This document shows, piece after piece, positions 25,709-52,904 of a stretch of DNA of 64,000 nt; position 1 is the first letter of the stretch; every line of letters starts with the position of its first letter. The notes below the pieces were generated by a model. That model made no database searches, had not been told where the DNA came from, and saw only the letters and a list, made by a program, of their open reading frames with translations. Source of the DNA: a virus; the UHGV virus genome UHGV-1351982; one strand, written 5' to 3'. The translations under genes and the position numbers were made by a program.

Positions 25709-28558
25709 TTAAATAGATGCCCAATCCACAGATTGCTCGCCATTATCACCTTCTGCTCTTATACGGAAGCGTAACTTCCTATTAATACCTAGAGCATCCT
25801 CGTTATGAAGAGCATAGTCTGCCTTATTGTATATCAGTAGATAATCGTAGACATACTGATCTTCAATTCGTACACTTCTTAATAAACGATCTAGGTTATC
25901 GTAGATTTCGAGAGTGTAGAAGATTCCATCAATGATATCTTCTTCTGGAATTCTATCCCAGGCCAACTTAACGTCTGGTCCTACAAACTCCGATGCATCT
26001 CCTGAAGCTGTGTTAGTAACCCTGAAATTACTAACGATGCTTAAGTTTTTAGCAGAGTTAAGTTCTACCGATAATGTTACAGGAGAACTTCGTCTACCAT
26101 TAATATCTACAGCTCTAATCTCAAAGACTGCTAAACCAGCAGGTTCTCCAATAATTTCTTGGATCATTCGTAGATTTGGATTAGTTTCTAGTTGCTGTAT
26201 GATATAAGGATCAGCATGCCCTGAATGAACGATGGAGTAATAAACAACGTTATTAGTTAAGCTAGGAAGCCAAGATAACTCACCATTCTTACCAATAGAT
26301 CCTACTTGTCCACCCGGTGTTGGTGTGTACATAAAGTCTCTAGGAGGCAGTACGTTATTACTAACATCAGGGATATCGTTACCACTATTATCAACCTGCT
26401 CGGAGTTAATGAATACATCCTCACCATACTCTTGCAGTGTAATATTAATCTTACCTTCTCTAGAGTTTTCAACTTCATCAACTAGGAAGTATTTCTTATC
26501 CCAACCATAACGACCATATGTAAAAGCAATCGGATCGTTAGGCTCAATGCCTATGAAATGATATGGTAATGAGAATGTGAGAGTTCGTGAGTAACGAGAC
26601 TTTTTCAGTTCTCTATCTGCAAAGCTACGTGCAGTATAGTAGTTAGTGATATTTGCAAAAGAAAGCTGAAGTTTTTTATCTAATCCTTTATCTTGTTCCT
26701 TAAATATAGAGTTAAAGAATGTAATGGAGTTAGTTTTCCAGCTTAATGCGGGATCTAATATAGAGGCTTGTACTGAGTTAAACTTATTTCTACCAGTAGT
26801 ATCTGATAGCTCCAGATCACCATAGGTATCTAAGAAGTCAATCTCTAATGGGGTGTTTGAGAACTTCTCAACAGTTATTCTATACTGTCCAGATAAGTTG
26901 TTGATAGCACCGCCATAAGACTCTATTAATCCCTGCACGTTTTTAAATACTGACTCAGAGGTATCGAGAATAGTATTCATTTGAACTATTTGTCTATTCT
27001 CTCCTACAGCATCAGTCCATCCAACGTATCTCCAGTAGGGTTGCCAAGAAACCTGATAGGATTCATCAATGATATCCAGGATAGCTGCTTCTTGAATAAG
27101 TTGCTGGAGAGGGAACTGATCAATAGTGATATTAGCACCATAGCGATCAGAGGTTAGGTAGTCCAGAGTTTGCCAGATACCATTTAAGCTAGTCTTGTCA
27201 GCAGTTACTCTACCATCTGAATGATAGATCTTAATCTTCTTACCCTGAACTTCAGCACTAACTTCTGGAATTTCTGTTCTGTTTTCATTAATAGTAAAGC
27301 GAACGATAGCATAAGCAGTATCTAACAGTTTATAACGAGAGTCCCAGTATTCCGGGCCATTCTCATTCATGTTCTGTAAATAGAAACCTTTCTCTTTTGC
27401 AATGTTAACTAGAACATCCGCAGCAGATTGATCTGCTTTACCATGATAAGTCCATATACGGATATCGCCATTACCATCATTATACTTATATTCCTGTCCA
27501 TGAACAGAAGGTTCAGAGCTTGGCTGGCCTGAAGCAATACGTTGCATGGTATCACCAGCTACTTTCTTAGTACCAAAGCAAGTACGAGACTTACTATCAT
27601 TAGGATCAATACAGATCATTGGTACATCACCAAAGTAGAAATCTAGGAATCCATCAATCTCACCCTCACAGAAAGCGTATACTACATATACGATATTAGG
27701 GTTATGCAGTTCAGTATCTGCGAATACTGGGATTCCAGGAATTTTCTGAACTCCGTACACTACTGGCAGGAATTTAGCAGCTAAGTTAAAATCAAGATCT
27801 ACTTCCTTAGTTACAGTCTCATAGTATTTCTTTAGGCTATAGCTTCTAGAAAGACCAAATAACTTTTTCTTAGATTGTAACTTATAACGTTCTTCCTGAA
27901 CCTGATACTTAGCAAGAATAGAGATACTCTTGTTAGCGTGGAAGAACCCGTAGTCCTCTTGATATTCAGGTCGCTTAGCACCATTAGACGGAACTAATTG
28001 TCCGGCAACAATCTCAAGCCCTCTATGGTCAGCATCATCTGTGAAACGTCCATTTACTCTATCAAAGTCATAGAATTGGTTTGAACAGTTCCATGTAATA
28101 ACGGATGTACTAACTCCCGAAGTACCAATGTTATCCTTAATACCACCACCAGTGATTTTACCACGGAAGTAAAGTAAAGGACCATTAGTGTCTGGATCTA
28201 CAGGAAGAATGTTACCTTCTTCATCAATAACCGCTTGATGGATTGAGATAGATCTATCTAGGAAGGATACACCATTTTGGACTAGTTTTAATACTTCATC
28301 CTCAGCAGTACCTGTGATAGTAAAAGAAAGGCTACCAATGGAAAGTTTTCTATTTTGTTTATGTGTTGTTATAGACTTAACTTTACCGGATGTGTAAAGA
28401 ATACCATTATAAATTACATCCCTAAAATAGTCTGTAAGATAAATGTATGCAGAACTTGATCCGGTAGAGCTTGGCAATTCAAGAGTAATAAGGCATGCAG
28501 TTTTTATTTTATTATTAGTTCTTAAATACTCTCTTGCACTGTCAAGAATTTTCTTCAT
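25709..28558 (-). CDS. baseplate hub protein (T5 pb3-like)
   Basis: 949 aa, same size as T5 pb3 as I recall; synteny pb2-pb9-pb3-pb4. Confidence 0.75.
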   Translation of the reverse strand: MKKILDSAREYLRTNNKIKTACLITLELPSSTGSSSAYIYLTDYFRDVIYNGILYTSGKVKSITTHKQNRKLSIGSLSFTITGTAEDEVLKLVQNGVSFLDRSISIHQAVIDEEGNILPVDPDTNGPLLYFRGKITGGGIKDNIGTSGVSTSVITWNCSNQFYDFDRVNGRFTDDADHRGLEIVAGQLVPSNGAKRPEYQEDYGFFHANKSISILAKYQVQEERYKLQSKKKLFGLSRSYSLKKYYETVTKEVDLDFNLAAKFLPVVYGVQKIPGIPVFADTELHNPNIVYVVYAFCEGEIDGFLDFYFGDVPMICIDPNDSKSRTCFGTKKVAGDTMQRIASGQPSSEPSVHGQEYKYNDGNGDIRIWTYHGKADQSAADVLVNIAKEKGFYLQNMNENGPEYWDSRYKLLDTAYAIVRFTINENRTEIPEVSAEVQGKKIKIYHSDGRVTADKTSLNGIWQTLDYLTSDRYGANITIDQFPLQQLIQEAAILDIIDESYQVSWQPYWRYVGWTDAVGENRQIVQMNTILDTSESVFKNVQGLIESYGGAINNLSGQYRITVEKFSNTPLEIDFLDTYGDLELSDTTGRNKFNSVQASILDPALSWKTNSITFFNSIFKEQDKGLDKKLQLSFANITNYYTARSFADRELKKSRYSRTLTFSLPYHFIGIEPNDPIAFTYGRYGWDKKYFLVDEVENSREGKINITLQEYGEDVFINSEQVDNSGNDIPDVSNNVLPPRDFMYTPTPGGQVGSIGKNGELSWLPSLTNNVVYYSIVHSGHADPYIIQQLETNPNLRMIQEIIGEPAGLAVFEIRAVDINGRRSSPVTLSVELNSAKNLSIVSNFRVTNTASGDASEFVGPDVKLAWDRIPEEDIIDGIFYTLEIYDNLDRLLRSVRIEDQYVYDYLLIYNKADYALHNEDALGINRKLRFRIRAEGDNGEQSVDWASI

Positions 28559-29169
28559 AGACTTTCCCTCAAGGAAAGTGAAATACCAGTATATGTACCA
28601 TTACTATTTAACGTAGAGCCGAAGCTGTCTCCGTTCATTAATTTAGTTCTAAATAGAATACCATTAAATACCGGTTTCTCACTACCCGTAGTAGTAATGA
28701 ATAGATCAGGGTAAACACTTATATTCCAAGTATTTCCTACTGTGTTGATAGAAGTGATTTTGTACACTTTTGGGTGGTTGGACAATTTAAATAAATCGCC
28801 TGGTTTAGGCAGTCCACGAAGTGTACCTTTAGTGTCCATAATAACTGTTGAACCTTTTTGTCCAGCAGGAATATTTACAGCACTAGTATCACCACGAACT
28901 CGGAAAGCTTCATATTGTGGTAATAACACATCAATATAGCTACCTGTTCTTTTGTAATCTAGAATGAATGAATCTAATTTAGCAAATTCATCTGGGAATA
29001 ATTCTGGATAAGAGATATTAATACCCCAATATTGAGCAGACACCTTAACCTCCCTAACTTTACCATTAGGTAATTCATCACGAATCATAGGGTCATTGTC
29101 TACTAAGTTAACGCTTTCAAAACCTAACCCTGATAGCTCTGGGTTCGTGTATGGGTCTGGTAGTCTCAT
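28555..29169 (-). CDS. distal tail protein (T5 pb9-like)
   Basis: 204 aa; position directly downstream of the tape measure gene. Confidence 0.7.
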   Translation of the reverse strand: MRLPDPYTNPELSGLGFESVNLVDNDPMIRDELPNGKVREVKVSAQYWGINISYPELFPDEFAKLDSFILDYKRTGSYIDVLLPQYEAFRVRGDTSAVNIPAGQKGSTVIMDTKGTLRGLPKPGDLFKLSNHPKVYKITSINTVGNTWNISVYPDLFITTTGSEKPVFNGILFRTKLMNGDSFGSTLNSNGTYTGISLSLRESL

Positions 29170-29224
29170 AGTTAATTTCTCCTCTTAATAACAATATTAT
29201 AATAGGATTGGAAAATTTTATCAA

Positions 29225-29272
29225 GAAATTTTTATTTTTCCATAAAGAAAAGGAGGACATAAAGTCCTCCTC
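29225..29272 (-). terminator. intrinsic terminator (- strand) after tape measure gene
   Basis: Hairpin GGAGGAC-ATAAA-GTCCTCC; T-rich tract follows on the - strand. Confidence 0.65.
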
Positions 29273-29277
29273 CAGTA

Positions 29278-32200
29278 TTAAGAATTACCAAGTGATTTCA
29301 GGGTGGTTCCATTCTCATTAAGAGCCTGTTCCACGGCATCCCTGAAAGCAGCACTATTGCTCGAAGCAAAATCTCGGAAGCTAGCCGCATCCATCGTACT
29401 GATGTTCAGCACAATAGGTCTACCCGATGTGCCTTTTGAAGATCCTTTGAGTTCATCAGTAGGGGTAGCCTTCATCGGAACCATAGGAGTGATTACTTCG
29501 GTACCATGCTCACCCATCTGGTAACTAACTCCAGGATACATATTACCACCTTCTGCACGAGGTACGAAAGAGTTAGCATTACCAATCCCTTGATCTCCTC
29601 GAATATAAGAAAGTTCACCTGCGTTAGCCGACATAGAAACGTCTACATTCTTCTGGCGCTCTCCAAGAGTTAAGTAACCCGCTGTCTCAGCACCAGAGTC
29701 TCCAATAGAAGACATACCAGATGCAGAGGATGCTTGAGCAAGAGCCATAGCACCTGCTAAACCAGCCGCAACCATCAGAGGAATAGAGAATGGATACGGA
29801 ACAGCTGTTGCTGCTTGCATCACCGCTACTGCCGTCTGGATAATGATTTGCTTCTTAGCTGCATCTTGCTGGATCTTGAGCTTTTCAGCCTCTAACTTCT
29901 TGATCTTAGCTTTGGATTGCTCAGATTTACCATCACGTTTCTGTTCTGCTGCAATAGCTGCATCAATAGCACTTACCTGTTGACCAACACTATACTGAAT
30001 CATTGAAGACACAGTTTGCATACCAGCCGCTACTAGAGAAGTGGTATCCAGAGATCCTTGTGAGAACTGGATCATAGCGTTAGTTAGGTTACCCATGCTT
30101 TGTGCTACAGCGGTTGCTTCGGAGTTCAGTTCAGACAGCTTAGAAATAGCCTGGTCATAGGACGCCATTCTATTCTGCATATCTGCGAAGTTTTTATCTT
30201 CTCCAGTTAATCCAGTAGTAGGAGTATACGTAGCCCCTACAGCCGCACCTACAGAAGACTGCATTTCTGCATCGCGCTGTACTCTTAAAGCTGCGAGCTG
30301 GGCTCTAGTTTCTGCTAGCTTTTTATTATACTCTAACTGAGCAGCAGCATTCCCTAAAGTTTTTTGCTTAAGGTCTTCGAATAGCTGGATTTGCTCCTTG
30401 ATACGTTCCGCAGCTCCCATTAAAGGATTTGCGGTAAATTTCCTTTGTTGCTCCTCTTCCCTGCCAGCAGCCATTTCCCTTTGCTGATCCTGACGGAATT
30501 TCCAGATTTCACGTTCAATTTGTGCCTGAGCACGTCTTGATTGTTCAGCTTCCTTATGCTTATCAACCTGTTTGGAGTACCATTCATACTTTTCTTTCTC
30601 GACAGTCAGTTCAAGGTTCAACTGAGCTAAACGATATTGAGTATCTGTCATAGTACGGTTATTCAGGAGAGCAATTTCACGATCAACACCAAGAATCTTA
30701 TCGGTATAGTCCTTAACCTTCTTCTGGGCTTCCATACCCTGGTTAGTAATCTTGATACGTTCTAACTGAATCTTAGCTATTTCACCTTCGATTGCTTTGT
30801 TACCTTTGTTAGTTTCTAGGACACGCTTAAGAGCTGCTTCCTGTTCTTCTAACTGTTGAATTTCCAAACGTCTACCAGCTTCCTGTGCTTTCTCTTTGTC
30901 CTTAGTCTGGTTATACACTTCGGCAATCTTCTGCTGAACTTCTAACTGATTCTTAGTCTCATTACCAGTTAATTTTACATAACCAGCAAGAGCTTGTGAA
31001 GCAGTCTTCATCTCACTAAGAGTATTATATCCTAAGTTCAGGCTCTTAACATACTCATCAGCATTTTTACCAGTACCAGCAGAAAGAGACTCAATAGTCT
31101 TAATCGTATCTGATAGGGATGCACTAGTTTTAGCCGCAGTATTAGTATTCTGAGCAATGTTCTGGATATCATTAGCTAAGTCGCTAGCAGTTTTCTTAGC
31201 TTGGTCATACGCTTTCTGCTGTTCTGTCAATCCTTTCAGAGTTGCAGAGTTAAAGTCATAAACCGCATCAGGATCATTCATATCCTTCTGCAGATTAATC
31301 TGCTTCTGAAATTCTGGATTAGCCTTAGCAGCCGCAGCACCCGCAGCTTGATATGCAGATTTCCATGCACCTAAATTATCGGTTGAATCAGTAACTTCCT
31401 TATCCAAACGTTCTACTTGGAGTGCCATAGCCGCAGTTTCAGCTACGAACTTCTTGTTTTCCTCAGAAGCACCAAGAGCCGCAGCACTTACCGGAACACC
31501 CTGAGCCACAGAACGAATTGCACCTGCAGTAAAGAAGTCAGCCTGTTCCATACGCTTGTCTAGATCAGCTTTTAACTTATTACGCTTTTCTAGAGATTCT
31601 TTATACATATCAAGAGCTTTATTATACCCTTCCTCAGAAGCGGAAAGACTTAAAGCTACAGCGCCAACGTTAGTTGGGTCAATCTGACGGTTAGTTTCTT
31701 CCTGTGCTCTAGCAGCAGAAGCTGAGATAGATGCTTGAGAAGTATAGAATACTGCGTTAATAGAATCAATTACCGGACCTAAATACTTAGCAGCAGCCTG
31801 TTGAACCTTTCTCAGTGCAGCATCAGCATTAGCAGCAAACTGTTCCCATGGAGTTGCGCGAAGTACATCATCTAGGTAGCCGAAACGTTTAGTAGATTCA
31901 GCGATTACTGCGTTAGCATATGCTTGTTGCTTCTGGAAAGTAGATAGACTATTAACGTTATATGTAATACCTGTGTTAGCAGCATTTAACTGTTTAACAT
32001 AGTCAGCATAAGCATCGTTAAGACGTATAGTAACACCAAGTTCGTCCAGAAGTTCGATTTCTTGTTTAGATACACCCTTGATTACACGGTTAAGTGCATC
32101 AGTCATATCAACACCAAGAACAGCAGCAGCACGACGAGCTACTAGACCAAATTTATTAAGTTGTTCCGCATCGAATCCATATGCAGAAGCAGAGGATGCC

Positions 32201-32958
32201 TGTCTCATTGCTTCTTCGAAGGAGATTGCGTAACCAGCAGCCTCTTGTAGAGATCTAGCTAGAGTTTGTACCGGAGTACCTGTTTGAGTACCAACAATAG
32301 TACCAAACTTCTCAAGACGGTTTAACTGGTCACCCATCTTAAGCTGTTCAAATGCAGATTGTAGAACGAACACGTTAGATGCGATAGCAGCGTACATAAG
32401 AGGTAAACCACCACCCACTTTAGCCATAGCTGCGAAGTCACGAGTAGCACCACGTGCTGAGCCAGAAGTATTACCAATTGCACGACTAGCACGTCCTGCA
32501 GCGGTAGTTGTATCATTAAAGCCTCTAGCAGTATTACCTAGGGCTCGGTTAGTATCATATAATCTATCTTGAACTTTTTCAGTTGCAGCAGCTACATCAT
32601 TACCCATCGCCTTAACAGATTTACCAACATGTGTAAATCCAGACTCTAGCTTCTCAGATACCTCGATCATAGCAAGGGCAAGATCATCTAGCTTATCACC
32701 AATACCCTCAATGGATTTAGTGATACCAGCCATACCTCTGCTAGCCTGCATTTTAGTTAGACTTTTAGCTGCTCTATCCGCCGCCCTCTCAATGGAGTAA
32801 AGAGTTTTGGGCATTTTTCCTAACTGCTCATTAGTCAGTTCGGAAGCGGCAGCAGCATTTTCTAACGCATCGGAAACGTTCTCAATAGATTTTGCAGTAC
32901 GGGTTGCCCCTTTCTGCTTTACATCTATAAGTAGTTCTCGTATTAGCTTATCAGTCAT
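29278..32958 (-). CDS. tail tape measure protein (T5 pb2-like)
   Basis: 1226 aa; long Ala/Gln/Lys-rich coiled-coil; largest tail gene; flanked by terminators. Confidence 0.85.
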   Translation of the reverse strand: MTDKLIRELLIDVKQKGATRTAKSIENVSDALENAAAASELTNEQLGKMPKTLYSIERAADRAAKSLTKMQASRGMAGITKSIEGIGDKLDDLALAMIEVSEKLESGFTHVGKSVKAMGNDVAAATEKVQDRLYDTNRALGNTARGFNDTTTAAGRASRAIGNTSGSARGATRDFAAMAKVGGGLPLMYAAIASNVFVLQSAFEQLKMGDQLNRLEKFGTIVGTQTGTPVQTLARSLQEAAGYAISFEEAMRQASSASAYGFDAEQLNKFGLVARRAAAVLGVDMTDALNRVIKGVSKQEIELLDELGVTIRLNDAYADYVKQLNAANTGITYNVNSLSTFQKQQAYANAVIAESTKRFGYLDDVLRATPWEQFAANADAALRKVQQAAAKYLGPVIDSINAVFYTSQASISASAARAQEETNRQIDPTNVGAVALSLSASEEGYNKALDMYKESLEKRNKLKADLDKRMEQADFFTAGAIRSVAQGVPVSAAALGASEENKKFVAETAAMALQVERLDKEVTDSTDNLGAWKSAYQAAGAAAAKANPEFQKQINLQKDMNDPDAVYDFNSATLKGLTEQQKAYDQAKKTASDLANDIQNIAQNTNTAAKTSASLSDTIKTIESLSAGTGKNADEYVKSLNLGYNTLSEMKTASQALAGYVKLTGNETKNQLEVQQKIAEVYNQTKDKEKAQEAGRRLEIQQLEEQEAALKRVLETNKGNKAIEGEIAKIQLERIKITNQGMEAQKKVKDYTDKILGVDREIALLNNRTMTDTQYRLAQLNLELTVEKEKYEWYSKQVDKHKEAEQSRRAQAQIEREIWKFRQDQQREMAAGREEEQQRKFTANPLMGAAERIKEQIQLFEDLKQKTLGNAAAQLEYNKKLAETRAQLAALRVQRDAEMQSSVGAAVGATYTPTTGLTGEDKNFADMQNRMASYDQAISKLSELNSEATAVAQSMGNLTNAMIQFSQGSLDTTSLVAAGMQTVSSMIQYSVGQQVSAIDAAIAAEQKRDGKSEQSKAKIKKLEAEKLKIQQDAAKKQIIIQTAVAVMQAATAVPYPFSIPLMVAAGLAGAMALAQASSASGMSSIGDSGAETAGYLTLGERQKNVDVSMSANAGELSYIRGDQGIGNANSFVPRAEGGNMYPGVSYQMGEHGTEVITPMVPMKATPTDELKGSSKGTSGRPIVLNISTMDAASFRDFASSNSAAFRDAVEQALNENGTTLKSLGNS

Positions 32959-33003
32959 TTATTTTTCCCAATAAAAAAGGCTCTGGGCAAATCACCCAGA
33001 GCC
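32956..33003 (-). terminator. intrinsic terminator (- strand) plus conserved 25-mer leader
   Basis: Hairpin GGCTCTGGG-CAAATCA-CCCAGAGCC followed on the - strand by TTTTTTATTGGGAAAAATAAATG, which includes the tape measure start codon. Confidence 0.65.
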
Positions 33004-33038
33004 AAGCCTCATCGTGGAACGCCCATTGGAGGAAACTT

Positions 33039-33407
33039 TTACTGAGCTCGAGATCTAGCATGCGGTTTAATGTTCGGAGTACGACCATTAGGTTTACTAT
33101 GCTTCTCGGCTCTCTTACGAGCTGCATCTACAGCTTTCGAATCAAATATATTGATTATGTGTAGAACAAACTCTTTCTCTATGGGATCAGTAATCCCATA
33201 GATATCAAATAAAACACCTAATGCACTTTTGTCTTTTCCTATAAATATAGGAAAATCGCCTGGTATGAAGCAGTCAATAAGACTATTATAAATATTCATA
33301 CTAGTAGATACAATAGGTGGAAAATCTTCGAGTTCAACAGGCATTGCCTTAGGATCAGGTTCAATACCAAGTGACTCACAAAGCATTAAATATTGTTGTT
33401 TTGTCAT
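33039..33407 (-). CDS. putative tail assembly chaperone
   Basis: 122 aa ORF immediately upstream (in transcript order) of the tape measure gene. Confidence 0.5.
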   Translation of the reverse strand: MTKQQYLMLCESLGIEPDPKAMPVELEDFPPIVSTSMNIYNSLIDCFIPGDFPIFIGKDKSALGVLFDIYGITDPIEKEFVLHIINIFDSKAVDAARKRAEKHSKPNGRTPNIKPHARSRAQ

Positions 33408-33468
33408 TTTAGATGCCGAGGATTTAATGCATTTATCAGCAAAATCGGCAACAGCATCTAGTAACTGC

Positions 33469-33873
33469 TTACGCTTTTGAGCTACGAAAAGTGTCTAAGT
33501 GGAACACTGTCTGGTTGATCCAAGAATCAAACGCAGCAGAGTTCTGCATAAGCATGATAGCGTTATCGCGACTAAATGGAACTTCAGTAGTAGGATCAGC
33601 CTCAGTTTCGATAAGCATCAGCTTCTCAACATCTCCAATCGTCAAGCCAGTCCAGCCAGCAATTGCAGTATCAACGAAAGCTTCAATAAACTTATCATCA
33701 TCCTGAACCTGAATCATAGTACCGTTAACCCACTCGTCACGCTTAGCGGAAGAGATAACACGCTTAGACGCAGCACGAGACATGTAGTTCAGTTGCAGCT
33801 TGAAGTTAGGCATACCTGGGTAAGCCAGCTCAATAGTACGAGTTTCAAGGGTAATATCTTTTAAATTGATCAT
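33469..33873 (-). CDS. tail protein (hypothetical)
   Basis: 134 aa ORF between tail tube and tape measure genes. Confidence 0.5.
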   Translation of the reverse strand: MINLKDITLETRTIELAYPGMPNFKLQLNYMSRAASKRVISSAKRDEWVNGTMIQVQDDDKFIEAFVDTAIAGWTGLTIGDVEKLMLIETEADPTTEVPFSRDNAIMLMQNSAAFDSWINQTVFHLDTFRSSKA

Positions 33874-34769
33874 TTCTTTATTTCTCCAAAGAAGTCGATT
33901 CTTACCGGATCAGAGTCTGCAGTAGGGATTACATCCCATTCAACTCTGTATATATCCGAGAATTGTAGGCGTTTTGTTATACGTGCTGAAGGAAAATCAA
34001 TCGAAATATGTTCATTTCGGATGGTTAATGGTATGTCAGTTTCGGGTTCAATATTATAAAACATATCGCCAGCAAATCGCTTGGTGTAGTAAAATGCAAT
34101 TGTTGCCGAAGCATTCATTTCATTAACATAAGCTCTCTTATTATTATATATTTTGTTTATGTCAAATACGCTTTTATCTTCTCTCCAAGAACATTGTTGC
34201 TGGAATGACATAGAAGCGGATAAAAGAGCCGGTAAAACGTTACTGTTAGTAGATACTCTAGGAGGACTATATGACATAACTTCACCCTGAACAATAGAAC
34301 CAGCAGGAGTAAAAGTAGACACCTCAGAGAACTTACCAGATTCAATTCCTACGTTTAGAATAGGAACGCTTTTATCTAGAGAAAAGTCTACAGTAGATAC
34401 ATAGCAATTCTCAAAATACACACAGTTATTATCTTTATTAACTATGTATATATTAAACATTGTTGGCTCAATATTTGTACTATAAAGTGGTAGTAGGAAT
34501 GTGTTACCCTCTCGGTCAAAGCCCATCCATTCAAAGAAGTTAGCTTCAGTAAGGGTATTACTAAAATTTATAGCCAGCGATATTGAAGATGGAGTTTGTG
34601 CATTAATAATAGAGTCAGCATAGTTGGTTCTACGATGTATAGTCCTACGAAGAGTTTTAAATTCCTCATAGGACGTATTGATATCGTAATTTGACAGGGC
34701 ATCAAAATGATAAGCCCTGCCATCGTACTCAACTATAACTTTTGACTCCCTCATTAGAGAGTAGTACAT
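33870..34769 (-). CDS. tail protein (T5 p140-like)
   Basis: 299 aa; position after the tail tube gene. Confidence 0.55.
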   Translation of the reverse strand: MYYSLMRESKVIVEYDGRAYHFDALSNYDINTSYEEFKTLRRTIHRRTNYADSIINAQTPSSISLAINFSNTLTEANFFEWMGFDREGNTFLLPLYSTNIEPTMFNIYIVNKDNNCVYFENCYVSTVDFSLDKSVPILNVGIESGKFSEVSTFTPAGSIVQGEVMSYSPPRVSTNSNVLPALLSASMSFQQQCSWREDKSVFDINKIYNNKRAYVNEMNASATIAFYYTKRFAGDMFYNIEPETDIPLTIRNEHISIDFPSARITKRLQFSDIYRVEWDVIPTADSDPVRIDFFGEIKK

Positions 34770-34773
34770 TTAA

Positions 34774-36183
34774 TTAGCCACCAGAAGCAGTAACTGTAAT
34801 GCTCTTAGTACCTTCTACACCAGAACCATCTTTAGCTACAGCTTTCACAGTAACTGCACCAGTCTTAGAAGCATCAGCGGTTAGTAACCCAGAAGTTGCA
34901 TCAATAGTGGCAGCAGTACCAGAGGAAATAGACCAAGTTACTTCCTTATTAGTAGCTTCAGCAGGTAAAACATCTACAGTCATCTGAAGAGTTGCACTAT
35001 TCTTGACGGAAGTTGCATCACCCGCAGATTTAACAGTAATACCTGTTACTTTTACTGGAGCTGCTTTACCACCGTCACCAGTTGCAATCAGATTTGCAAT
35101 AGTAGCTTTGGTGTACTTATTAGAGAAACCAAGATAACCTTCATCACCAGTATCCAGATCAGTAGGAATTGCTTTGAACTCTACAGAAGTACCAAGTACA
35201 TCGTCAGTCTCAATAGTTGGGATGTTTACGTGGGCTTGCTTAGCAACCAGAACAGCAGCAGGGCGCTCATCATCATATTCACCCCCAAGTACTAGAGCGA
35301 TTTCGAAACGGTTAACTACTTTCAGGGTCTTAATTAGATCTTTGTACAGATCCATAGAACCTAGAGCTTTATCGTTAAGATAAGCAGTTAGAGAACCAGT
35401 TAGTTCGAATGCACCAGTAAATGAACCGATTGGGATGTTAACACGGGACATAACGTTCGGAGTCAGGTAGGTGATGTTGTTGTTGATTGTAAAACTACCA
35501 CCAGTGATCGGAATGTCATATGCCTTACCAGTATCCATATCCTTAATTTTGAGGATAGTCAGTTTGTTCTTGATATAAGAACCCTGGATAGTCATGTAAG
35601 TTTCATCATCAATACCTACAGTATCAGGATCAAATGGAGCAGCATCCAGAGGGATCAGCTGGTTACCATTACCTGACCAAGTTACACGACCGATATCTTC
35701 GATATCAACGTTTACTTCAGCCTGGTTGATCTGGCAGGAATCGATGTAGCTCCATGCTTTATCAGTAAGGATGTAAATATGTAGCATTGCCAGTTCGTGG
35801 TATGCGTTATCCTTAAAGTTAACCATGAAGTTAGTTTCGTTAGTGTGTGCACCTGTATCACCATCTAGGTTGATAGGCTTACCACTAGAAAGAGCATGCC
35901 ACAGCATGTAGTCCGGAACGATCTGCTTACTCGTAGTCTTGTCTAAGTAAGGCAGGATGTAAGTAGAGAAACTCCACTCAGCTGCGTTCAGGGAGTCGTT
36001 GAAACGTTTTGAACCACGAGTTGGACGCGGACCAGCTTCGTTAACAGTAATATCGGTTGAGTTACTGTCCTGACCCCAAGAAATATCATCTTGAACTAGA
36101 ATCTCTTGCGTGTTTTCTTTGGTGTGACCAGACTTAACCGTAGACACGAAGATTCGAGTATTACGTAATAGTTGTAAAGACAT
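34774..36183 (-). CDS. tail tube protein (T5 pb6-like) with C-terminal Ig-like domain
   Basis: 469 aa (T5 pb6 recalled as ~464 aa); C-terminal Big_2-like segment (VTGITVKSAGDATSVKNSATLQMTVDVLPAEATNKEVTWS). Confidence 0.8.
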   Translation of the reverse strand: MSLQLLRNTRIFVSTVKSGHTKENTQEILVQDDISWGQDSNSTDITVNEAGPRPTRGSKRFNDSLNAAEWSFSTYILPYLDKTTSKQIVPDYMLWHALSSGKPINLDGDTGAHTNETNFMVNFKDNAYHELAMLHIYILTDKAWSYIDSCQINQAEVNVDIEDIGRVTWSGNGNQLIPLDAAPFDPDTVGIDDETYMTIQGSYIKNKLTILKIKDMDTGKAYDIPITGGSFTINNNITYLTPNVMSRVNIPIGSFTGAFELTGSLTAYLNDKALGSMDLYKDLIKTLKVVNRFEIALVLGGEYDDERPAAVLVAKQAHVNIPTIETDDVLGTSVEFKAIPTDLDTGDEGYLGFSNKYTKATIANLIATGDGGKAAPVKVTGITVKSAGDATSVKNSATLQMTVDVLPAEATNKEVTWSISSGTAATIDATSGLLTADASKTGAVTVKAVAKDGSGVEGTKSITVTASGG

Positions 36184-36209
36184 TTATATATATTCTCCTA
36201 ATCTGTAAC

Positions 36210-36695
36210 TTATCTGCGTAATGCACGCTTAGGTGGCATATAACGCACTGTTACATTTATTTCCGCTAAACCATATGGGGCCAGTAGACCTTCATCTGTA
36301 GCTACTGAGGTGATGTTCATATCAGTTGCCTCACATGGGAAGGTCGATCCATTAGGTTTACTAACAGTATATTCTAAATTTCCACCTGTGTCAATGACGG
36401 TTTTTATGTCAGCTACGAGTTTTTCAAGTTGCTCTTGAATATCTGTTTTCTCTTTGTCATACACGAGGATTGGAAGTTCTAAAAACATCCACTGTTGGCC
36501 TGAAGGAAGATACTGCCCAGTTTCAGTTCCGATATGGACTGCCACATAAGGAAATTCTCGGATTTCCTCAAATTTATAAGTTTGACGAGAAACGTTTCCA
36601 TAAAGGTTATTGAAATACTCGTCAGGTTGTGAACCATCCATTTGTGTGGCGATTCGGTCAACCACTGCTTGTGCAATACTTGTTCTGTGATCCAT
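36210..36695 (-). CDS. tail completion / terminator protein (putative)
   Basis: 161 aa ORF between neck genes and tail tube gene. Confidence 0.5.
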   Translation of the reverse strand: MDHRTSIAQAVVDRIATQMDGSQPDEYFNNLYGNVSRQTYKFEEIREFPYVAVHIGTETGQYLPSGQQWMFLELPILVYDKEKTDIQEQLEKLVADIKTVIDTGGNLEYTVSKPNGSTFPCEATDMNITSVATDEGLLAPYGLAEINVTVRYMPPKRALRR

Positions 36696-36698
36696 TTA

Positions 36699-37466
36699 TT
36701 AGGTTCCTTGATTAACCTTGATTTTATATCTAGAATGAATCAGGTCTCTTGCAGCTTTTGCGATTGCTTCCCCAATAAGTTTTTGAGGGTTTCGAGCGCC
36801 AGGGTAAGGTCGTAGAGAAAGTCTTCGATATGTAGAAACTGCGGGGTTGAACACAGAATAAGGACGAACCATATAATTATACGTCACATTCAGCTCTGGA
36901 GCACCTTTACTAGTTTCTGCATCACGTAGCATAACGTCTTTAATCTTTAAGGAGTTAGCAAAGCGACCAGTTCTGAACTTCAATGGTGCTCCTGCTTTTT
37001 TCATATCCTTGATTAAGTATTCCTTAGCTACTATCTCAAGAATAGCACGCATGTTACTATTCGATACGAAACGACCGGAAGCACCTGTTACTGCACCAGA
37101 ATAGCCATCTTCAGTATCTCTAGGATCTCCAAAGTTTACCTGAACTCTACCGGTAGAACGTTTTTTACCAACAGCAGAACGTTTACCTGCGGTTGCTTGA
37201 ATTAGATTCTCTAGAGCACCTAAATCACCAGAAAGATCTAAGTTAGAAGAGACGGCCTTCAATATAGATGCTGTCCTAACATTTAATAAGTCTTGAGATA
37301 CTGGTTTTGAGAATTTGAAAGATACCTGTGCAACTGTACCATCTCTTGTAGGATCTTTCAAACCTGTCTCAACTGTATACACAACAGTATTCTTATTATT
37401 CTCAGATCGTCCTGCAGTATCTAGCTGCTCTTTAATAATTTGTCTAGCTAGATCAGAAAGAGCCAT
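36699..37466 (-). CDS. head-tail joining protein (putative)
   Basis: 255 aa ORF in neck gene position. Confidence 0.5.
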   Translation of the reverse strand: MALSDLARQIIKEQLDTAGRSENNKNTVVYTVETGLKDPTRDGTVAQVSFKFSKPVSQDLLNVRTASILKAVSSNLDLSGDLGALENLIQATAGKRSAVGKKRSTGRVQVNFGDPRDTEDGYSGAVTGASGRFVSNSNMRAILEIVAKEYLIKDMKKAGAPLKFRTGRFANSLKIKDVMLRDAETSKGAPELNVTYNYMVRPYSVFNPAVSTYRRLSLRPYPGARNPQKLIGEAIAKAARDLIHSRYKIKVNQGT

Positions 37467-37978
37467 TACACTCTCCTATAGACTTCGATGATTGTACGAA
37501 TATGCTCTGGAATACCAGACTTAGTATTGTTAAACGTAACTGTCTCACCACCAATAGTCTTGGCTTGACGATAATCTTGCTTATGCCAGTGATCTACTAA
37601 CAGACATGCTGCCAGTTTAAGATCTTCAGGCATTGGATTGAAACCACCTTGAGTATACTCTACATCCATGTATCCTTCAGGAGGATTAAACTTAAGGAGA
37701 ATAACACCATCAGGATACAGTTTAAACTGTTCCGGGTCTATTTCATTCTCGTTAATAGTCATCTTTGTAATAGATGTGGCTGAGGGAGAACTCAGAAAAT
37801 ATTTTCTGCGAGTAGGTTTTGTGTTGATTAGCTGATCTATCGCATCCGCATCATCCATACCTAAAAGGCTAGTAATCAGCGTATTGGCAGCCTTAATCAT
37901 CATGTCTACTCCAGATTCGATTTCAGGTCGTTTTAGGCTACCGTATAGTCTATAATCTTCAGCTGTGATGATTTGCAT
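37466..37978 (-). CDS. head completion protein (putative)
   Basis: 170 aa ORF immediately downstream of the major capsid gene. Confidence 0.5.
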   Translation of the reverse strand: MQIITAEDYRLYGSLKRPEIESGVDMMIKAANTLITSLLGMDDADAIDQLINTKPTRRKYFLSSPSATSITKMTINENEIDPEQFKLYPDGVILLKFNPPEGYMDVEYTQGGFNPMPEDLKLAACLLVDHWHKQDYRQAKTIGGETVTFNNTKSGIPEHIRTIIEVYRRV

Positions 37979-38018
37979 TTATTTTTCCCAATAAAAAAGG
38001 AGAGCCGAAGCTCTCCTT
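37976..38018 (-). terminator. intrinsic terminator (- strand) after major capsid gene plus conserved 25-mer leader
   Basis: Hairpin AGGAGAGC-CGAA-GCTCTCCT followed on the - strand by the same TTTTTTATTGGGAAAAATAAATG. Confidence 0.7.
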
Positions 38019-38037
38019 ATCGGCTGAAAAGCCTGTA

Positions 38038-39411
38038 TTAAGCAGCGTAAGCACCAGATACAACGCCGTTTTCGAAGTAACGTTGCAGGTTAACACGCTG
38101 AGTAACGTAGTATGCGTCACGCTGTTTTCCAGCTTGGCGCTCACGTTCAACAGTAACAGCACGCTGACGCGGCATTACGAAGTTATCTTTGTAAACAATA
38201 ACTGCGAATTCAGCGGAAGCAGCTTTAGCTGGGAAGTACTCAGAAACTACAACCGGTAGACCGTAAATACGACCAACCTGACCCTGCAGTTTAACAGCAT
38301 CATTACCAACCTGGGCAACATCCTGCCATTCTTCATCTTCCAGCAGATCGTAGTAAGCATCCATAGATACGATCAGTACCAGTTTACTCAGTTTCAAACC
38401 ATGACGGCCCAGTTTACGACGCAGCTTGGAGATAGTCTTAGCAGTTACCAGAACAGAACCGTCAGCTTTAGCTTCGGTAACAACCTTAGCACCATCATCA
38501 GCAGCCAGTTTCAGCAGACCCTTAGGCTGACCAGTACCATTACCAGACATGAAAGCTTCTTCGATAGAAACAGCGTGTGCTTCGATCAGACGCTTACGCA
38601 GCAGAGGCAGCAGGGAGAAGATTGCATCTTCTTCAGTTTCATCAGTGATGAAGGATTTAGCAGCCAGCTTGTAAGTTTTGAAGCTGATTTCAGTCAGTTG
38701 ACCTTTAACTTCGTCACCAACAGTTTCGTCAGTACCGAATTTGGAAGCGTCTACCCAAGTAGCACGACCAGCTTCTGGTTCAACGAGCATAGTAAGAATT
38801 TTGCTGGACATTGGCAGTTCATCGAACAGTGCACCAACTACCAGTTCCTTCTGCAGGTCACGGATAATACGGGTAGAGAAGATAGTTTCGTATGCTTCGC
38901 TAGACATGGAAACGGAAGAAGAACCGTTAACAGCTTTAACGTGAGCCTTACCATGTTCAGTTTCGAATACGTCCTTCTCCATCATATAAGACAGAAGAAC
39001 CAGTTTCTCAACTTCATCCTCGAAAGCATCCTGAGTGCCATAAAGAGCTTTAGCTACGCTATCACCAACGAAGGAACGACCTTCACGAGCTGCCAACAGA
39101 GACTTGATTTCGTCCTGAAGACCAACGATGGTTTCCTGTTGCTTTTCTACAGTCTGTGCAAACAATTCTGCGCTCTTCTTAGACTTCTCGTCCAGGTTCT
39201 TAACCAGATCCAGAGCTTCTTCCAGACGCTTACGGTCTTCACCAACAGCTTTAGATACTAGGTCGTTCATACGAGCCAGTTCTTTTTCTTCCTGCTCTTC
39301 ACGCAGACGCTTAGCTTCCGCAGCTTTCTGAGCAGCAGTCAGACCTTCCAGAGATTTAGCCAGATCACCCAGACCAAGTTCTTCCTTCAGCTTATTAATA
39401 TCAATAGTCAT
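38038..39411 (-). CDS. major capsid protein (T5 pb8-like)
   Basis: 457 aa (T5 pb8 recalled as 458 aa); host-optimal codon usage; follows protease gene; intrinsic terminator downstream. Confidence 0.85.
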   Translation of the reverse strand: MTIDINKLKEELGLGDLAKSLEGLTAAQKAAEAKRLREEQEEKELARMNDLVSKAVGEDRKRLEEALDLVKNLDEKSKKSAELFAQTVEKQQETIVGLQDEIKSLLAAREGRSFVGDSVAKALYGTQDAFEDEVEKLVLLSYMMEKDVFETEHGKAHVKAVNGSSSVSMSSEAYETIFSTRIIRDLQKELVVGALFDELPMSSKILTMLVEPEAGRATWVDASKFGTDETVGDEVKGQLTEISFKTYKLAAKSFITDETEEDAIFSLLPLLRKRLIEAHAVSIEEAFMSGNGTGQPKGLLKLAADDGAKVVTEAKADGSVLVTAKTISKLRRKLGRHGLKLSKLVLIVSMDAYYDLLEDEEWQDVAQVGNDAVKLQGQVGRIYGLPVVVSEYFPAKAASAEFAVIVYKDNFVMPRQRAVTVERERQAGKQRDAYYVTQRVNLQRYFENGVVSGAYAA

Positions 39412-39428
39412 TTTTAAATAATTCTCCG

Positions 39429-40061
39429 TTATTCTTTAACGTAGCCTAAAGCTATCGCAAGTTTTTCTAGTTCAGAAAGATTACGTTCTTGAGCTGGGAC
39501 AGCCTTAGAACTTGTTGCAGTAAAAGATTTGCGCCATTCAGTGTAATCGTGGCCATTCATACTCTTAGCGAGGTTGAACGTTGAGTCCTGATTACAAGGT
39601 ACAGAAACTACCGAAACTTCGTATAGTTCTAAATCTTTAATAATAAATATGTCAGTAGCTTCATCCCATTCTGCGTCTAGGCAGCGGAATCCGATACTGA
39701 AGGTTTTCAGTACACCGTTTTTAATTAGTGAGAAGATAGCTGGATCAGAACTTTCATAAATCTCGCATTCAATTTCGAGACCCATTTCAGTAGGGTTAAG
39801 ATCAATACACTTGCCGATTGGACGACGATGGTCGTGGCCGAAAAGAATAATCGGGTTTTTCATGTAGTTAGCAAGTGCATTAGACGTTTTCCATGCCGAA
39901 GCAGGAATTACGTCACCAGCGCGATCTTTACTAATTGTATTAGCGAATCCACGGATTTTTACAACACCCTCTTTGGATTCGCTATCAATAGACTTAATGT
40001 AAGCGTCTAAATGAACCGGTGCTGATTTTAACTTGTTATAGTCAATAGCAGCATTTGTCAT
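39429..40061 (-). CDS. prohead protease (T5 pb11-like)
   Basis: 210 aa, matching T5 pb11 size; located between decoration and capsid genes. Confidence 0.7.
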   Translation of the reverse strand: MTNAAIDYNKLKSAPVHLDAYIKSIDSESKEGVVKIRGFANTISKDRAGDVIPASAWKTSNALANYMKNPIILFGHDHRRPIGKCIDLNPTEMGLEIECEIYESSDPAIFSLIKNGVLKTFSIGFRCLDAEWDEATDIFIIKDLELYEVSVVSVPCNQDSTFNLAKSMNGHDYTEWRKSFTATSSKAVPAQERNLSELEKLAIALGYVKE

Positions 40062-40064
40062 TTA

Positions 40065-40547
40065 TTAAGCCTCCAGCGCAGGGTTGATAGTTGTTACGCA
40101 CTCGTTAGAAGTAATAGAAGTAGATTTACTATCCGTTACAACAACTTTGTAAGTACCAGCATCTTCTGCAGCAGCTGTAGCTTTGTTGAAATTAGGGCCA
40201 GTAACACCACTAAGTGGAGAACCGTCTTTAGTCCAAGCATAAGTATATGGTGCAGTACCACCAGTAACTGTTACGCCCAGATTAATTGCTGCACCAGTAT
40301 CAACAGCTAGAGTTTTAGCCAGATTCTTCGTGAAAGCTAGAGCCGGAACAACCGGAGCAGTAACTTCGTATGCTTCTTTGAACTTATTCCAAACCTTGCG
40401 GTTGGTATGTGCAGTGGTCATTCCAAACTCTTTACGTAGAGTAGTGTAGTTTGGAACGAACTTGTGTGCTGCAACCGTAGCAAAGAAGATATGAGATTCT
40501 GGCAGCTTTTCACCAAAAATGGCCTTTAGACCATCATAATCAATCAT
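40065..40547 (-). CDS. capsid decoration protein (T5 pb10-like) with Ig-like domain
   Basis: 160 aa; Ig-like segment (VTGGTAPYTYAWTKDGSPLSG...AGTYKVVVTDS). Confidence 0.7.
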   Translation of the reverse strand: MIDYDGLKAIFGEKLPESHIFFATVAAHKFVPNYTTLRKEFGMTTAHTNRKVWNKFKEAYEVTAPVVPALAFTKNLAKTLAVDTGAAINLGVTVTGGTAPYTYAWTKDGSPLSGVTGPNFNKATAAAEDAGTYKVVVTDSKSTSITSNECVTTINPALEA

Positions 40548-41761
40548 TCTTTATCCCCATCGGCAGTGCCTTGCGGTCTACCACCTTCTTGACCAGATAC
40601 ACCTGTTGCAGAACCAGCAACGTTAGCAGGAATACGAATCTTATTCATCTGCTCATCATCTAAAGGTTCAAGGTTAAGCTCTTCACGAGCTTCGTTACCA
40701 GTCATGATACCGTTATTAACCAAAGAGGTTAAATGTTTAGCCTCAGCTTCTTTATCTGGCGTCAGTGCAGCTACTTCCTTAGTATTAGGAGTAACCTTGT
40801 AGCCAAAGAAGAAAGTAAGAGAACTAGTCAGCTTGTTCAGCATAGGAATGATAGTCATGTAATAGAACAATTCGATGTTTGGTCGAATGTTAGCATTATT
40901 ACCACCATCAAGTAACACTTGCGGAACACCAAAGGCAAGACAGATGGATTTATTAAATCCTTCGATATCTTCCTTGAAGTCTAGATCTTTAAAAGAGGAT
41001 ATTTGGGAGTACGGTTTTGCTTTCATACCACCATCTAGAATCAGGACAGTAGACTGACCAGTACTAGGATTATAATCGAGTTGTAATTCTTCTTGTTTAC
41101 GCTCACGCAATTTCTTGTTCAGGATTTCATCCGTCTCAAGAATAAGACCAATCACTGTGCCGTTATCGAGGAACTTCTCTTTAAAGTTAAGCATTTTAGA
41201 ACGCTTCTCAAGAGAGTCAATAACTGTAGCAACACGAGATTGTCCAGAAATTTGGGAGTTTGTGCCACACACGTAACTGTTATCCTTTATAAAGATAATC
41301 TCATCTACGCGATAGTCTATCTGGTTATTAAATATGAATTTTTTGATAAACTTATTGGCATCTGCCTCTACTTGCATTAGTGCAGCAGGGACATGGTAAA
41401 GTGCTGTGCCATCCCAATAGATGTATGCACAACCCTCAAAAAGTAGGTCAGTGACTACAAGTCTACGGAATGTGCTTATATCCATGAATGGATTAGGTCG
41501 TACATTTAAGAGAGTGTCTAGAGTCTTTGCCTTGACGCCATTAGCGTACGTGACAATATTATATTTATCTCCGACAGTATAAGAACACTCCGCCGCACTA
41601 TCGATAACCATGTTAGCAGTTCGGTTGAGAATCTCAATCTTACTGTAGGCTTGTCCAGTGGTAAATGGCTTACGGTTAGTGCGATGACTAACTGGTTCCA
41701 TGTCTCTTATAATACGTTGACCCGGATTTAGCTTTTCAGTAATCCAGCTTTTTAAACCCAT
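40544..41761 (-). CDS. portal protein (T5 pb7-like)
   Basis: 405 aa (T5 pb7 recalled as ~403 aa); position after terminase. Confidence 0.75.
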   Translation of the reverse strand: MGLKSWITEKLNPGQRIIRDMEPVSHRTNRKPFTTGQAYSKIEILNRTANMVIDSAAECSYTVGDKYNIVTYANGVKAKTLDTLLNVRPNPFMDISTFRRLVVTDLLFEGCAYIYWDGTALYHVPAALMQVEADANKFIKKFIFNNQIDYRVDEIIFIKDNSYVCGTNSQISGQSRVATVIDSLEKRSKMLNFKEKFLDNGTVIGLILETDEILNKKLRERKQEELQLDYNPSTGQSTVLILDGGMKAKPYSQISSFKDLDFKEDIEGFNKSICLAFGVPQVLLDGGNNANIRPNIELFYYMTIIPMLNKLTSSLTFFFGYKVTPNTKEVAALTPDKEAEAKHLTSLVNNGIMTGNEAREELNLEPLDDEQMNKIRIPANVAGSATGVSGQEGGRPQGTADGDKE

Positions 41762-42285
41762 TATAAGAACCTTGCGAATCCTGATTTAATTTCAGTCTTG
41801 ACTTGTGTCTTTTCTTGAGGATTCTGTAGCTTTTCCTTTTGTTTAAGAACCCATACCTTCTGCTTATTAGCAGAGAAAAGGGGAGGTTCTTTAGTGTACA
41901 CCTTATGTAATAGTTGGTGATGGTGGACACAAAGGGTAACAGTGTCATCTACTAGCTCATGCCTATATCTTTCATAGAATGCCGTCCTATTTGAGAGGAC
42001 TGTTTCTTCGTCAGTGAAATCCAACTGGAGTTCTTTAGCAAATTTTTTAACTAGTAGAGACACTGTATGGTAATGATGAAGCTCTAATTCTTCACCACAA
42101 CCACAGATTTCGCAGCGATCGGCTTTTTTATATTGACTTTTTATACCGTCTCGCATGAGTGATATAGCATCACGTTTATATTTTACATTTCCTGCCACAG
42201 TATTCTCCTCAACTGTATGAATATAGTATACATAATCATGTCGAATTTGTAAAGGGGATTTTAAAATGCAGGAATGGGATACCAA
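41761..42285 (-). CDS. HNH endonuclease
   Basis: 174 aa; Cys pairs and His-rich HNH core (CEICGCGEELELHHYH ... LCVHHHQLLH); sits between large terminase and portal. Confidence 0.6.
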   Translation of the reverse strand: MVSHSCILKSPLQIRHDYVYYIHTVEENTVAGNVKYKRDAISLMRDGIKSQYKKADRCEICGCGEELELHHYHTVSLLVKKFAKELQLDFTDEETVLSNRTAFYERYRHELVDDTVTLCVHHHQLLHKVYTKEPPLFSANKQKVWVLKQKEKLQNPQEKTQVKTEIKSGFARFL

Positions 42286-42312
42286 CTGAGTAGTATCCCA
42301 TCCTATACTTAT

Positions 42313-44111: not shown

Positions 44112-44121
44112 ATATCCTCCT

Positions 44122-45903: not shown

Positions 45904-45927
45904 ACAATCTCCTTCTTTAAAAATGTA

Positions 45928-45959
45928 TTTGCTTAGATCCCTCTATTTTGCTATAATAT
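45928..45959 (+). promoter_or_regulatory. sigma70-type promoter for the lipoprotein gene (TTGCTT -35, TGCTATAAT -10)
   Basis: Conserved downstream box ATATTTATAAATTAAACAGAGGA; lies in the divergent region shared with the receptor-binding gene. Confidence 0.65.
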
Positions 45960-45986
45960 ATTTATAAATTAAACAGAGGAACGATT

Positions 45987-46253: not shown

Positions 46254-46327
46254 TTAGTATAAAGTAAAAAGATCTCGAAGTAAACAAAAATTTTTATTTC
46301 TGGGATGAGGTACAGGTAGCAAACACA

Positions 46328-52834: not shown

Positions 52835-52904
52835 TACTTATAAATTAAAGAGAAATAATAACTATAAGAAACTATCGGCTAAGTGAGAACCACTATCATT
52901 TAGG

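Follow-up and report, generated by a model that had tools for sequence, protein, structure and literature searches.

What does it mean when the same 25 nucleotides (nt) stand between genes at two places of one late operon? This question is raised by UHGV virus genome UHGV-1351982, of which a stretch of 64,000 nt (the window) was analyzed. Region 32700-38300 of the window matches Salmonella phages of the genus Epseptimavirus (Demerecviridae, T5-like) at 98% identity and tequintaviruses at ~84%, and the late structural genes are encoded on the minus strand, from about position 45900 to 22000. The initial annotation had reported an identical 25-mer at two intergenic sites together with a degenerate third copy, and this observation was fully reproduced. 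A search of the window for the 25-mer CATTTATTTTTCCCAATAAAAAAGG revealed two exact plus-strand copies, at 32956-32980 (copy 1) and 37976-38000 (copy 2), while none would be expected by chance (0.00 in 100 dinucleotide-preserving shuffles); no further site with up to three mismatches is present in the window. The third copy was recovered in a repeat search (family D7) at 29229-29253 and agrees in 19 of 25 positions (76% identity). We propose that the two exact copies are very probably the junction at which an intrinsic terminator meets the translation initiation region of the late gene that follows, and that they are identical because both junctions sit on a consensus conserved across the Demerecviridae.

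Read on the minus strand, both exact copies have the form hairpin-TTTTTTATTGGGAAAAATAAATG. The shared 25 nt comprise the last two base pairs of the stem, the U-tract, a Shine-Dalgarno (SD) sequence, a spacer and the start codon. The identity does not extend beyond the last two stem base pairs on one side and the ATG on the other, and the adjoining hairpins and coding starts are unrelated; similarity reaching into the flanks, which characterizes a dispersed repeat, is thus not found at the exact copies. Copy 1 lies between the genes for the second tail assembly chaperone and the tape measure protein (TMP), and copy 2 between the genes for the major capsid protein and the head completion/head-tail adaptor protein. 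Beyond these two junctions, the shorter 16-mer TTGGGAAAAATAAATG has two weak matches in the window (2-3 mismatches), which is about the chance level; the one that was inspected lies inside an open reading frame (ORF).

For comparison, 30 IMG/VR contigs and 13 GenBank genomes were used, covering Tequintavirus, Epseptimavirus, Sugarlandvirus (Spivey), Serratia phage Slocum, Novosibvirus (Proteus phage PM135), Priunavirus (Providencia phage PR1), Erwinia phage KEY, Enterobacter phage KKP_3711 and two Vibrio phages. Terminator-like hairpins are present in all of them at the same three gene borders, i.e., capsid/adaptor, chaperone/tape measure and tape measure/distal tail (seen in T5, HASG4, Spivey, Slocum, PM135, PR1, KEY, KKP_3711 and the Vibrio phages). 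Terminators were annotated at these borders by the depositors of T5, HASG4, Spivey, Slocum, PR1 and KEY, and those of Spivey and Slocum also annotated a ribosome-binding site right after the terminators. In the window, the three hairpins have stems of 9-11 pairs, five to seven of them G-C, and start 4 to 35 nt past the stop codons of the capsid, chaperone and tape measure genes, in sense orientation.

The stem at the chaperone/tape measure junction is maintained as a structure. In an alignment of 10 lineages, 98.6% of the stem cells pair (slid registers reach at most 62%), and two of the seven pairs show compensatory changes on both sides. In this test, the structure was specified by hand on a shortened alignment, as RNAalifold applied to the MAFFT alignment of the whole chaperone/tape measure spacer misaligned the stems. 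The hairpin of the capsid site hardly varies among the relatives and offers few changes with which pairing could be tested; its core GGAGAGCTTCGGCTCTCC is identical in Spivey, PM135, PR1 and KKP_3711 and is contained in a longer stem of Slocum. The U-tract TTTTTTATT of copy 2 is the same in most relatives and is shortened or interrupted in Slocum, in the compared sequence L070 and in the two Vibrio phages. At copy 1, all 10 aligned lineages share its portion TTTTTTAT (T6AT), and PM135 has A as the ninth base. The three sites therefore have what defines an intrinsic (Rho-independent) terminator at the level of sequence, namely the stem, the U-tract and the position, with compensation at the chaperone/tape measure site, and can be designated as putative intrinsic terminators.

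On the other side of the junction, the start codons are fixed by protein profiles. Positions 1-169 of the Pfam profile HCP match residues 2-170 of the adaptor, and positions 1-82 of TMP_N match residues 1-82 of the tape measure protein. Because the profiles reach residues 2 and 1, respectively, the ATGs at 37978 and 32958 are the true starts. Both starts are kept in all relatives compared, and T5 p144 has the same length as the adaptor encoded in the window (170 amino acids; PMC11313276). To quantify SD strength, the duplex of the 3' end of 16S rRNA with the 20 nt before each of 21 late-gene starts was calculated. The two leaders are among the weakest of the 21, most of which possess GGAG/GAGG-type sites with -6 to -13 kcal/mol, and the few genes that are as weak mostly abut or overlap the preceding gene. 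With -4.2 kcal/mol, the two leaders are thus weak, free-standing ribosome sites. The anti-SD duplex of GGGA ends 6 nt ahead of the AUG in both, so that the features of SD-led initiation are present, i.e., a purine stretch at 5-10 nt, a true N-terminus and an SD-like element kept in relatives.

Indeed, relatives without GGG carry another SD at the same distance: TGGAG/TGAGG in L070, AGAGG in L062, AAGGAG in PG07, and GTC followed by a new AGGTGA in KKP_3711. At the copy 2 leader, the replacements are AGAGG (L062), TGGAG (L070) and AAGGAG (PG07), whereas AGGTGA of KKP_3711 belongs to the copy 1 site. A lost G-run that is replaced by another SD behaves as an SD and not as a sequence-specific operator. 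The leader as a whole varies among the relatives as well (e.g., GGGTAAAAT, GGAAAAAATC, GGGAAAAATTC). A small hairpin that would display the SD, UUUAUU-GGGAAA-AAUAAA, was considered and rejected: it has only -1.5 kcal/mol and is not kept in KEY, KKP_3711, site 1 of PM135 and site 2 of L062. The pairing of UUUAUU with AAUAAA is unremarkable, because any U-tract and A-rich spacer pair to some extent.

Across the genera, both junctions follow the consensus hairpin-T6ATT-GGG[A/T]AAAAT-N0-5-ATG. At the tape measure junction, the intergenic part is 76-92% identical among relatives versus 52-74% for the coding flanks; at the capsid junction, the values are 73-85% for the intergenic part versus 69-82% for the flank in the capsid gene and 35-71% for that in the adaptor gene (all values being nucleotide identities only). 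The two junctions within one genome usually differ, and there is no co-variation between them. In tequintaviruses, the tape measure ATG is preceded by three additional nt (GGGAAAAATAAAACATG), and the outgroups KEY, Slocum and PR1 have the shorter form; the exact 25-nt identity is therefore a feature of Epseptimavirus-type genomes. In the T5 reference genome (NC_005859), putative rho-independent terminators are annotated at 101563-101586, 96553-96587 and 92087-92113 and the promoter P-G 25 at 92013-92087. They are located at the same gene borders as in the window: the capsid hairpin and the 25-mer are identical, the chaperone hairpin is nearly identical, and the tape measure terminator and the promoter match. 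However, a 753-nt homing endonuclease gene (T5.141, with CapR and treble-clef domains) separates the U-tract of T5 from the tape measure gene, whose start overlaps the endonuclease stop codon; T5 therefore possesses only one copy of the 25-mer. As T5 with this insertion is viable, the fused terminator/leader junction is not indispensable. The T5 annotation makes no mention of a shared leader.

Table 1. Positions of the junction elements, flanking genes and further features in the window
Feature	Position	Strand	Basis and remarks
Major capsid protein gene	38038..39411	-	457-amino-acid ORF; Pfam Phage_capsid, E 5e-23; major head protein in relatives; upstream of copy 2
Small upstream hairpin GGCTTTTCAGCC	38022..38033	-	-4.7 kcal/mol; GGC..GCC stem kept in other genera
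Copy 2 terminator hairpin AAGGAGAGC-TTCG-GCTCTCCTT (RNA: AAGGAGAGC-UUCG-GCUCUCCUU)	37997..38018	-	Terminator scan; -14.5 kcal/mol
Copy 2 U-tract TTTTTTATT (RNA UUUUUUAUU), 9 nt	37990..37998	-	Sequence
Copy 2 leader: SD GGGA (37989-37986) and 7-nt A-rich spacer AAAATAA (RNA AAAAUAA)	37979..37989	-	Anti-SD duplex -4.2 kcal/mol
Head completion/head-tail adaptor gene (p144 homologue)	37466..37978	-	ATG 37976-37978; Pfam HCP, E 1e-77; 170 amino acids
Second tail assembly chaperone ORF (T5.142 homologue)	33039..33407	-	ORF and annotation of relatives; upstream of copy 1
Conserved element TTTCCTCCAATGGGCGTTCCACGATGAGG, 29 nt	33007..33035	-	Between chaperone stop codon and copy 1 terminator
Copy 1 terminator hairpin GGCTCTGGGT-GATTT-GCCCAGAGCC (RNA: GGCUCUGGGU-GAUUU-GCCCAGAGCC)	32979..33003	-	Terminator scan; -19.1 kcal/mol
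Copy 1 U-tract TTTTTTATT (RNA UUUUUUAUU), 9 nt	32970..32978	-	Sequence
Copy 1 leader: SD GGGA (32969-32966) and 7-nt A-rich spacer AAAATAA (RNA AAAAUAA)	32959..32969	-	Anti-SD duplex -4.2 kcal/mol
Tape measure protein gene (pb2 homologue)	29278..32958	-	ATG 32956-32958; Pfam TMP_N and TMP_C
Third-site terminator hairpin, after tape measure gene	29249..29273	-	Terminator scan; -15.7 kcal/mol; annotated in T5
Third-site U-tract TTTTCTTTAT (RNA UUUUCUUUAU)	29242..29251	-	Sequence
Third-site A-rich tract GGAAAAATAAAAATTTC (tract GGAAAAAUAAAAAUUUC), UP-element-like	29225..29241	-	Directly upstream of -35 hexamer
Predicted sigma-70 promoter TTGATA-17-TATAAT	29196..29224	-	11/12 match; homologue of T5 late promoter P-G25
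Distal tail protein gene (pb9 homologue)	28555..29169	-	Pfam DTP-pb9 domains; strong SD AAGAGGAG, duplex -9.1 kcal/mol
Early promoter cassettes	144-216, 3696-3770, 4716-4770, 5945-6005, 7299-7371, 15804-15965, 45906-45978, 52821-52854	+	Repeat search

The initial annotation had read hairpin, U-tract, GGGA as SD and start codon at every copy. This holds for the two exact copies, as the strong hairpins with U-tract, the starts fixed by Pfam and the alternative SDs of GGG-less relatives indicate, and fails for the third one, where a promoter is found instead of a start codon. Past the stop codon of the tape measure gene (29278), the order is hairpin, U-tract, A-rich tract, promoter, the SD AAGAGGAG and the ATG of the distal tail gene at 29169; no start codon follows the third copy directly, and the next ATG lies 56 nt further on. 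In other genera, this tract is still A/T-rich, but the GG is not conserved. The resemblance to the exact copies therefore comes from the succession of a U-tract and an A-rich tract, the latter serving a promoter and not a ribosome, and the third copy is, to judge from this arrangement, a terminator tail plus the A-rich upstream region of a predicted P-G25 homologue, with no leader. UP elements are the A/T-rich part of strong sigma-70 promoters, and the third site is similar to them in that its A/T-rich tract abuts the -35 hexamer of a validated late promoter, while the two exact copies have no promoter core downstream. Late transcripts from P-G25 have been demonstrated in infected cells via primer extension (PMC7472727). 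A -35/-10 pair with 16-18 bp spacing is present downstream of the A-rich tract only at the third site, and the promoter scan found no sigma-70-like promoter between the hairpin and the ATG at either exact copy.

Two further promoter-like sequences were noticed among the late genes. TTGACA-17-TATACT at 36366-36394 (minus strand) lies inside the tail-terminator gene and ahead of the tail tube gene, and its position matches that of the T5 late promoter P-J5. Behind the large terminase gene, a fourth hairpin (42303-42272, minus strand; -17.5 kcal/mol, with a poor U-tract) is followed by TTTACA-17-TATACT (within 42225-42303); a hairpin and a consensus promoter are likewise present at the large terminase border of the relatives.

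Sequences resembling the junction are not confined to T5-like phages. The 23-mer TTTTTTATTGGGAAAAATAAATG was found in 30 IMG/VR stretches, 28 of them on T5-sized contigs (104-122 kb) and two on shorter metagenome fragments. The 18-mer TTTTTTATTGGGWAAAAT occurs in at least 120 IMG/VR stretches; among the matches listed, there are 45 distinct non-T5 contexts, 29 with an adjacent hairpin, 25 with an ATG within ~7 nt and 19 with both. Non-T5 examples among these matches are situated behind tape measure genes or before a tail gene read as P2 gpD-like. A control version with GGAG, i.e. with a canonical SD (TTTTTTATTGGAGWAAAT), occurs in at least 89 distinct IMG/VR contexts and combines hairpin and ATG in 76 of 89 among the matches listed. 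No enrichment of the GGG version over this control can be claimed, as both counts are lower bounds. Since a terminator tail running into a ribosome site is common in phages, its readers are most probably host RNA polymerase and ribosomes rather than a phage-specific factor. The T5 junction is, as far as these contexts indicate, a weak-SD version of a common compact phage terminator/ribosome-binding site design.

As the space from the hairpin to the ATG is too short for a promoter and the scan detected none there, transcription must reach the genes for the adaptor and the tape measure protein by read-through from upstream. According to the scheme that we propose, most transcripts would end at the terminator behind the capsid or the chaperone gene, and those that read through would be translated from a weak, unstructured ribosome site. 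The net effect would be a step-down of expression at the capsid/adaptor and chaperone/tape measure borders. Expression may be raised again by promoters, namely by the putative P-J5 homologue (36394-36366) before the tail tube gene and by the P-G25 homologue before the baseplate genes. From this arrangement we infer actual termination, its leakiness and an effect on stoichiometry. The tape measure protein is a trimer. In the T5 virion, 775 capsid subunits, 12 adaptor subunits and 40 trimeric rings of the tail tube protein are present (PMC11313276). The adaptor and tape measure proteins are thus needed in few copies, with ratios of 65:1 (capsid:adaptor) and 40:1 (tail tube:tape measure), which would fit such a step-down.

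Several points weigh against this reading. The spacer and GGG are conserved more tightly than a weak SD alone needs, and at the tape measure site of tequintaviruses GGGA is ~10 nt away from the AUG, which is long for an SD. In Providencia PR1, the hairpin and the 25-mer of the capsid junction are identical to those of the window, although the coding flanks are at most 69% identical. Furthermore, the terminators appear strong by sequence, though the genes downstream need enough read-through, and our literature searches found no Term-seq or other 3'-end mapping for any T5-like phage.

The need for read-through leads to the question of whether the hairpins mainly stabilize 3' ends or act as processing barriers, shielding capsid and chaperone transcripts from 3' exonucleases once read-through and cleavage have occurred, with the leader still being a ribosome site. 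Substantial read-through is required, since the genes for the adaptor and the tape measure protein lack promoters and are essential; furthermore, a second small hairpin stands ahead of each terminator, as might be expected for such a role. However, a GC-rich stem with a 9-nt U-tract directly attached is the defining signature of intrinsic termination, and protection of 3' ends does not require a conserved U-tract, yet T6AT is invariant in the 10 lineages. We regard this explanation as unlikely; note that stabilization is compatible with termination and both can coexist. The tight conservation of the leader and the identity with PR1 despite diverged flanks could also be understood in two other ways. 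The leader, U6AUU-GGGA-A5UAAAUG, could act in cis as a conserved RNA signal by which translation is coupled to terminator read-through, either with the U-tract as a platform for ribosomal protein S1 or standby binding or through a late phage factor acting at both genes. If true, this would explain why hairpin and leader are identical in the Epseptimavirus window and PR1, but we consider it quite improbable. The leader UUGGGAAAAAUAAAUG could also be a specific operator, at which a phage or host factor (a translational repressor, an antiterminator or an RNase) controls adaptor and tape measure synthesis together. In tequintaviruses, the position of the motif is indeed fixed to the terminator rather than to the ATG. 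Nevertheless, the leader differs among genera and between the two sites of one genome, several lineages have ordinary SDs instead, T5 tolerates the 753-nt endonuclease gene that splits the U-tract from the tape measure gene, and the 16-mer has no matches elsewhere in the window beyond the two weak ones. In addition, the 18-mer serves as terminator tail and ribosome-binding site in at least 19 unrelated phage contexts, the GGAG control being commoner still. An operator of the kind known from the RegA-type sites of phage T4 should have a fixed sequence at all regulated genes and be indispensable, and the leader appears to have neither property. A dedicated operator is thus decidedly improbable, and the suggestion of the initial annotation that exact identity points to a late-gene regulatory site is not upheld by the variation of the leader between genera, the T5 insertion and the frequency of the junction in unrelated phages.

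It might be argued that the identity has no function of its own and simply records a recent copy event, i.e., duplication or gene conversion between the junctions. An exact match of 25 nt inside one genome would be in line with that, and regulatory cassettes are used repeatedly in T5-like genomes, as in the early promoter families D1-D3. A copied segment would hardly stop exactly at functional borders, however, with unrelated hairpins and coding starts beyond, and in tequintaviruses the two copies differ in length owing to a 3-nt indel. In distant genera, each of the two sites shows the consensus independently of the other and deviates from it slightly in its own way, so the state must be old and maintained, which makes a recent copy event very improbable. 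Finally, the A-rich motif could be a UP element at all three sites and drive late promoters hidden in the first adaptor and tape measure codons. The tract at the third site does abut the -35 hexamer of the P-G25 homologue, and with P-J5 an intragenic late promoter exists in T5. But neither exact copy has a usable -35/-10 pair downstream of the motif, and a transcript begun there would lack the start codon, which leaves this idea with hardly any credibility. The junction of intrinsic terminator and translation initiation region consequently remains the reading that we prefer for the two exact copies.

Other observations concern the surroundings of the junctions. The second chaperone ORF (33039-33407, minus strand) is without an SD (-1.7 kcal/mol). 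On the upstream side, its frame continues without a stop codon across the 61-nt 'gap' and into the first chaperone ORF (33469-33873, minus strand), whose last ~9 codons it overlaps in the +1 frame. The two ORFs have the same frame relation in the annotation of Erwinia KEY. This suggests for the chaperone pair (33039-33873) a programmed frameshift of the G/GT type, which would be of the +1 or -2 kind rather than the usual -1. The 29-nt element TTTCCTCCAATGGGCGTTCCACGATGAGG between the chaperone gene and the copy 1 terminator is almost the same in T5, Proteus PM135, Providencia PR1 and Erwinia KEY, apart from 1-2 nt indels, because of which it is not coding. It can form a CCUC/GAGG hairpin (-6.1 kcal/mol) in which no compensatory changes were seen. 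The element has no match in Rfam and is unique in the window; in IMG/VR it is found on T5-like contigs only, save three chance matches in coding regions. A search of Rfam at E up to 1 over 28500-46500 gave only one chance match, to U7, which lies elsewhere.

Besides T5.141 (15778-16530 in L003, i.e. T5), endonuclease-like genes or extra ORFs are located beside these terminators in two other compared sequences (10411-11001 in L067 and 17193-17966 in L078). Homing-endonuclease-like genes or extra ORFs also occur upstream of the capsid-junction hairpin in L034, L039 and L058. The terminator spacers look like preferred landing sites of homing endonuclease genes, judging from these insertions.

Other repeats were detected in the window as well. 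The T5-type early promoter cassettes (TTGC..-TATAAT, then ATAAATTTGAGAGAG; plus strand, families D1-D3) represent another reused regulatory module. Furthermore, a cluster of direct repeats (families D4, D5 and D8) is present at 56484-56645 and 56738-57280 on the plus strand. It contains three 51-nt units with ..AAATGCGA.TCA.TCTCATT.. and at least five units containing TGTGCAAATCCGA; the cluster (56484-57280) might be an iteron or protein-binding array.

The junction described here is an ordinary one, and its terminators are already known from the annotation of T5. Three terminators, one promoter and two start codons are now located precisely in the genome; beyond annotation, the result has little importance. 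It nevertheless offers a simple and testable view of the way in which T5-like phages may balance abundant proteins (capsid, tail tube) against rare ones (adaptor, tape measure), i.e., by leaky terminators and weak ribosome sites. It also calls for caution, since an exact intergenic repeat can reflect the same generic constraints (U-tract, SD, A-rich spacer, ATG) without a dedicated regulator.

The junction has counterparts in known systems. The compact terminator/ribosome-binding site junctions found in IMG/VR share with the window the layout hairpin-T6ATT-SD-A-rich spacer-ATG; they are single and belong to unrelated genomes, whereas in the window the same junction is found at two places of one operon and has been retained throughout a virus family. 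Ribosomal protein S1 binds A/U-rich translational enhancers that are situated upstream of weak SD sites. A U-rich tract 5' of a weak SD with an A-rich spacer is the type of leader reported to be helped by S1, and we suggest by analogy that the terminator U-tract would doubly serve as part of an S1-aided leader. A parallel to the proposed step-down is T-phi of phage T7, a terminator located directly behind the major capsid gene 10; the structural genes downstream rely on read-through, which lowers their expression. In both cases a terminator stands right after the gene of the most abundant structural protein. However, T-phi is a stop signal for T7 RNA polymerase; it is not repeated in its operon, and its bases do not pass directly into the next ribosome site.

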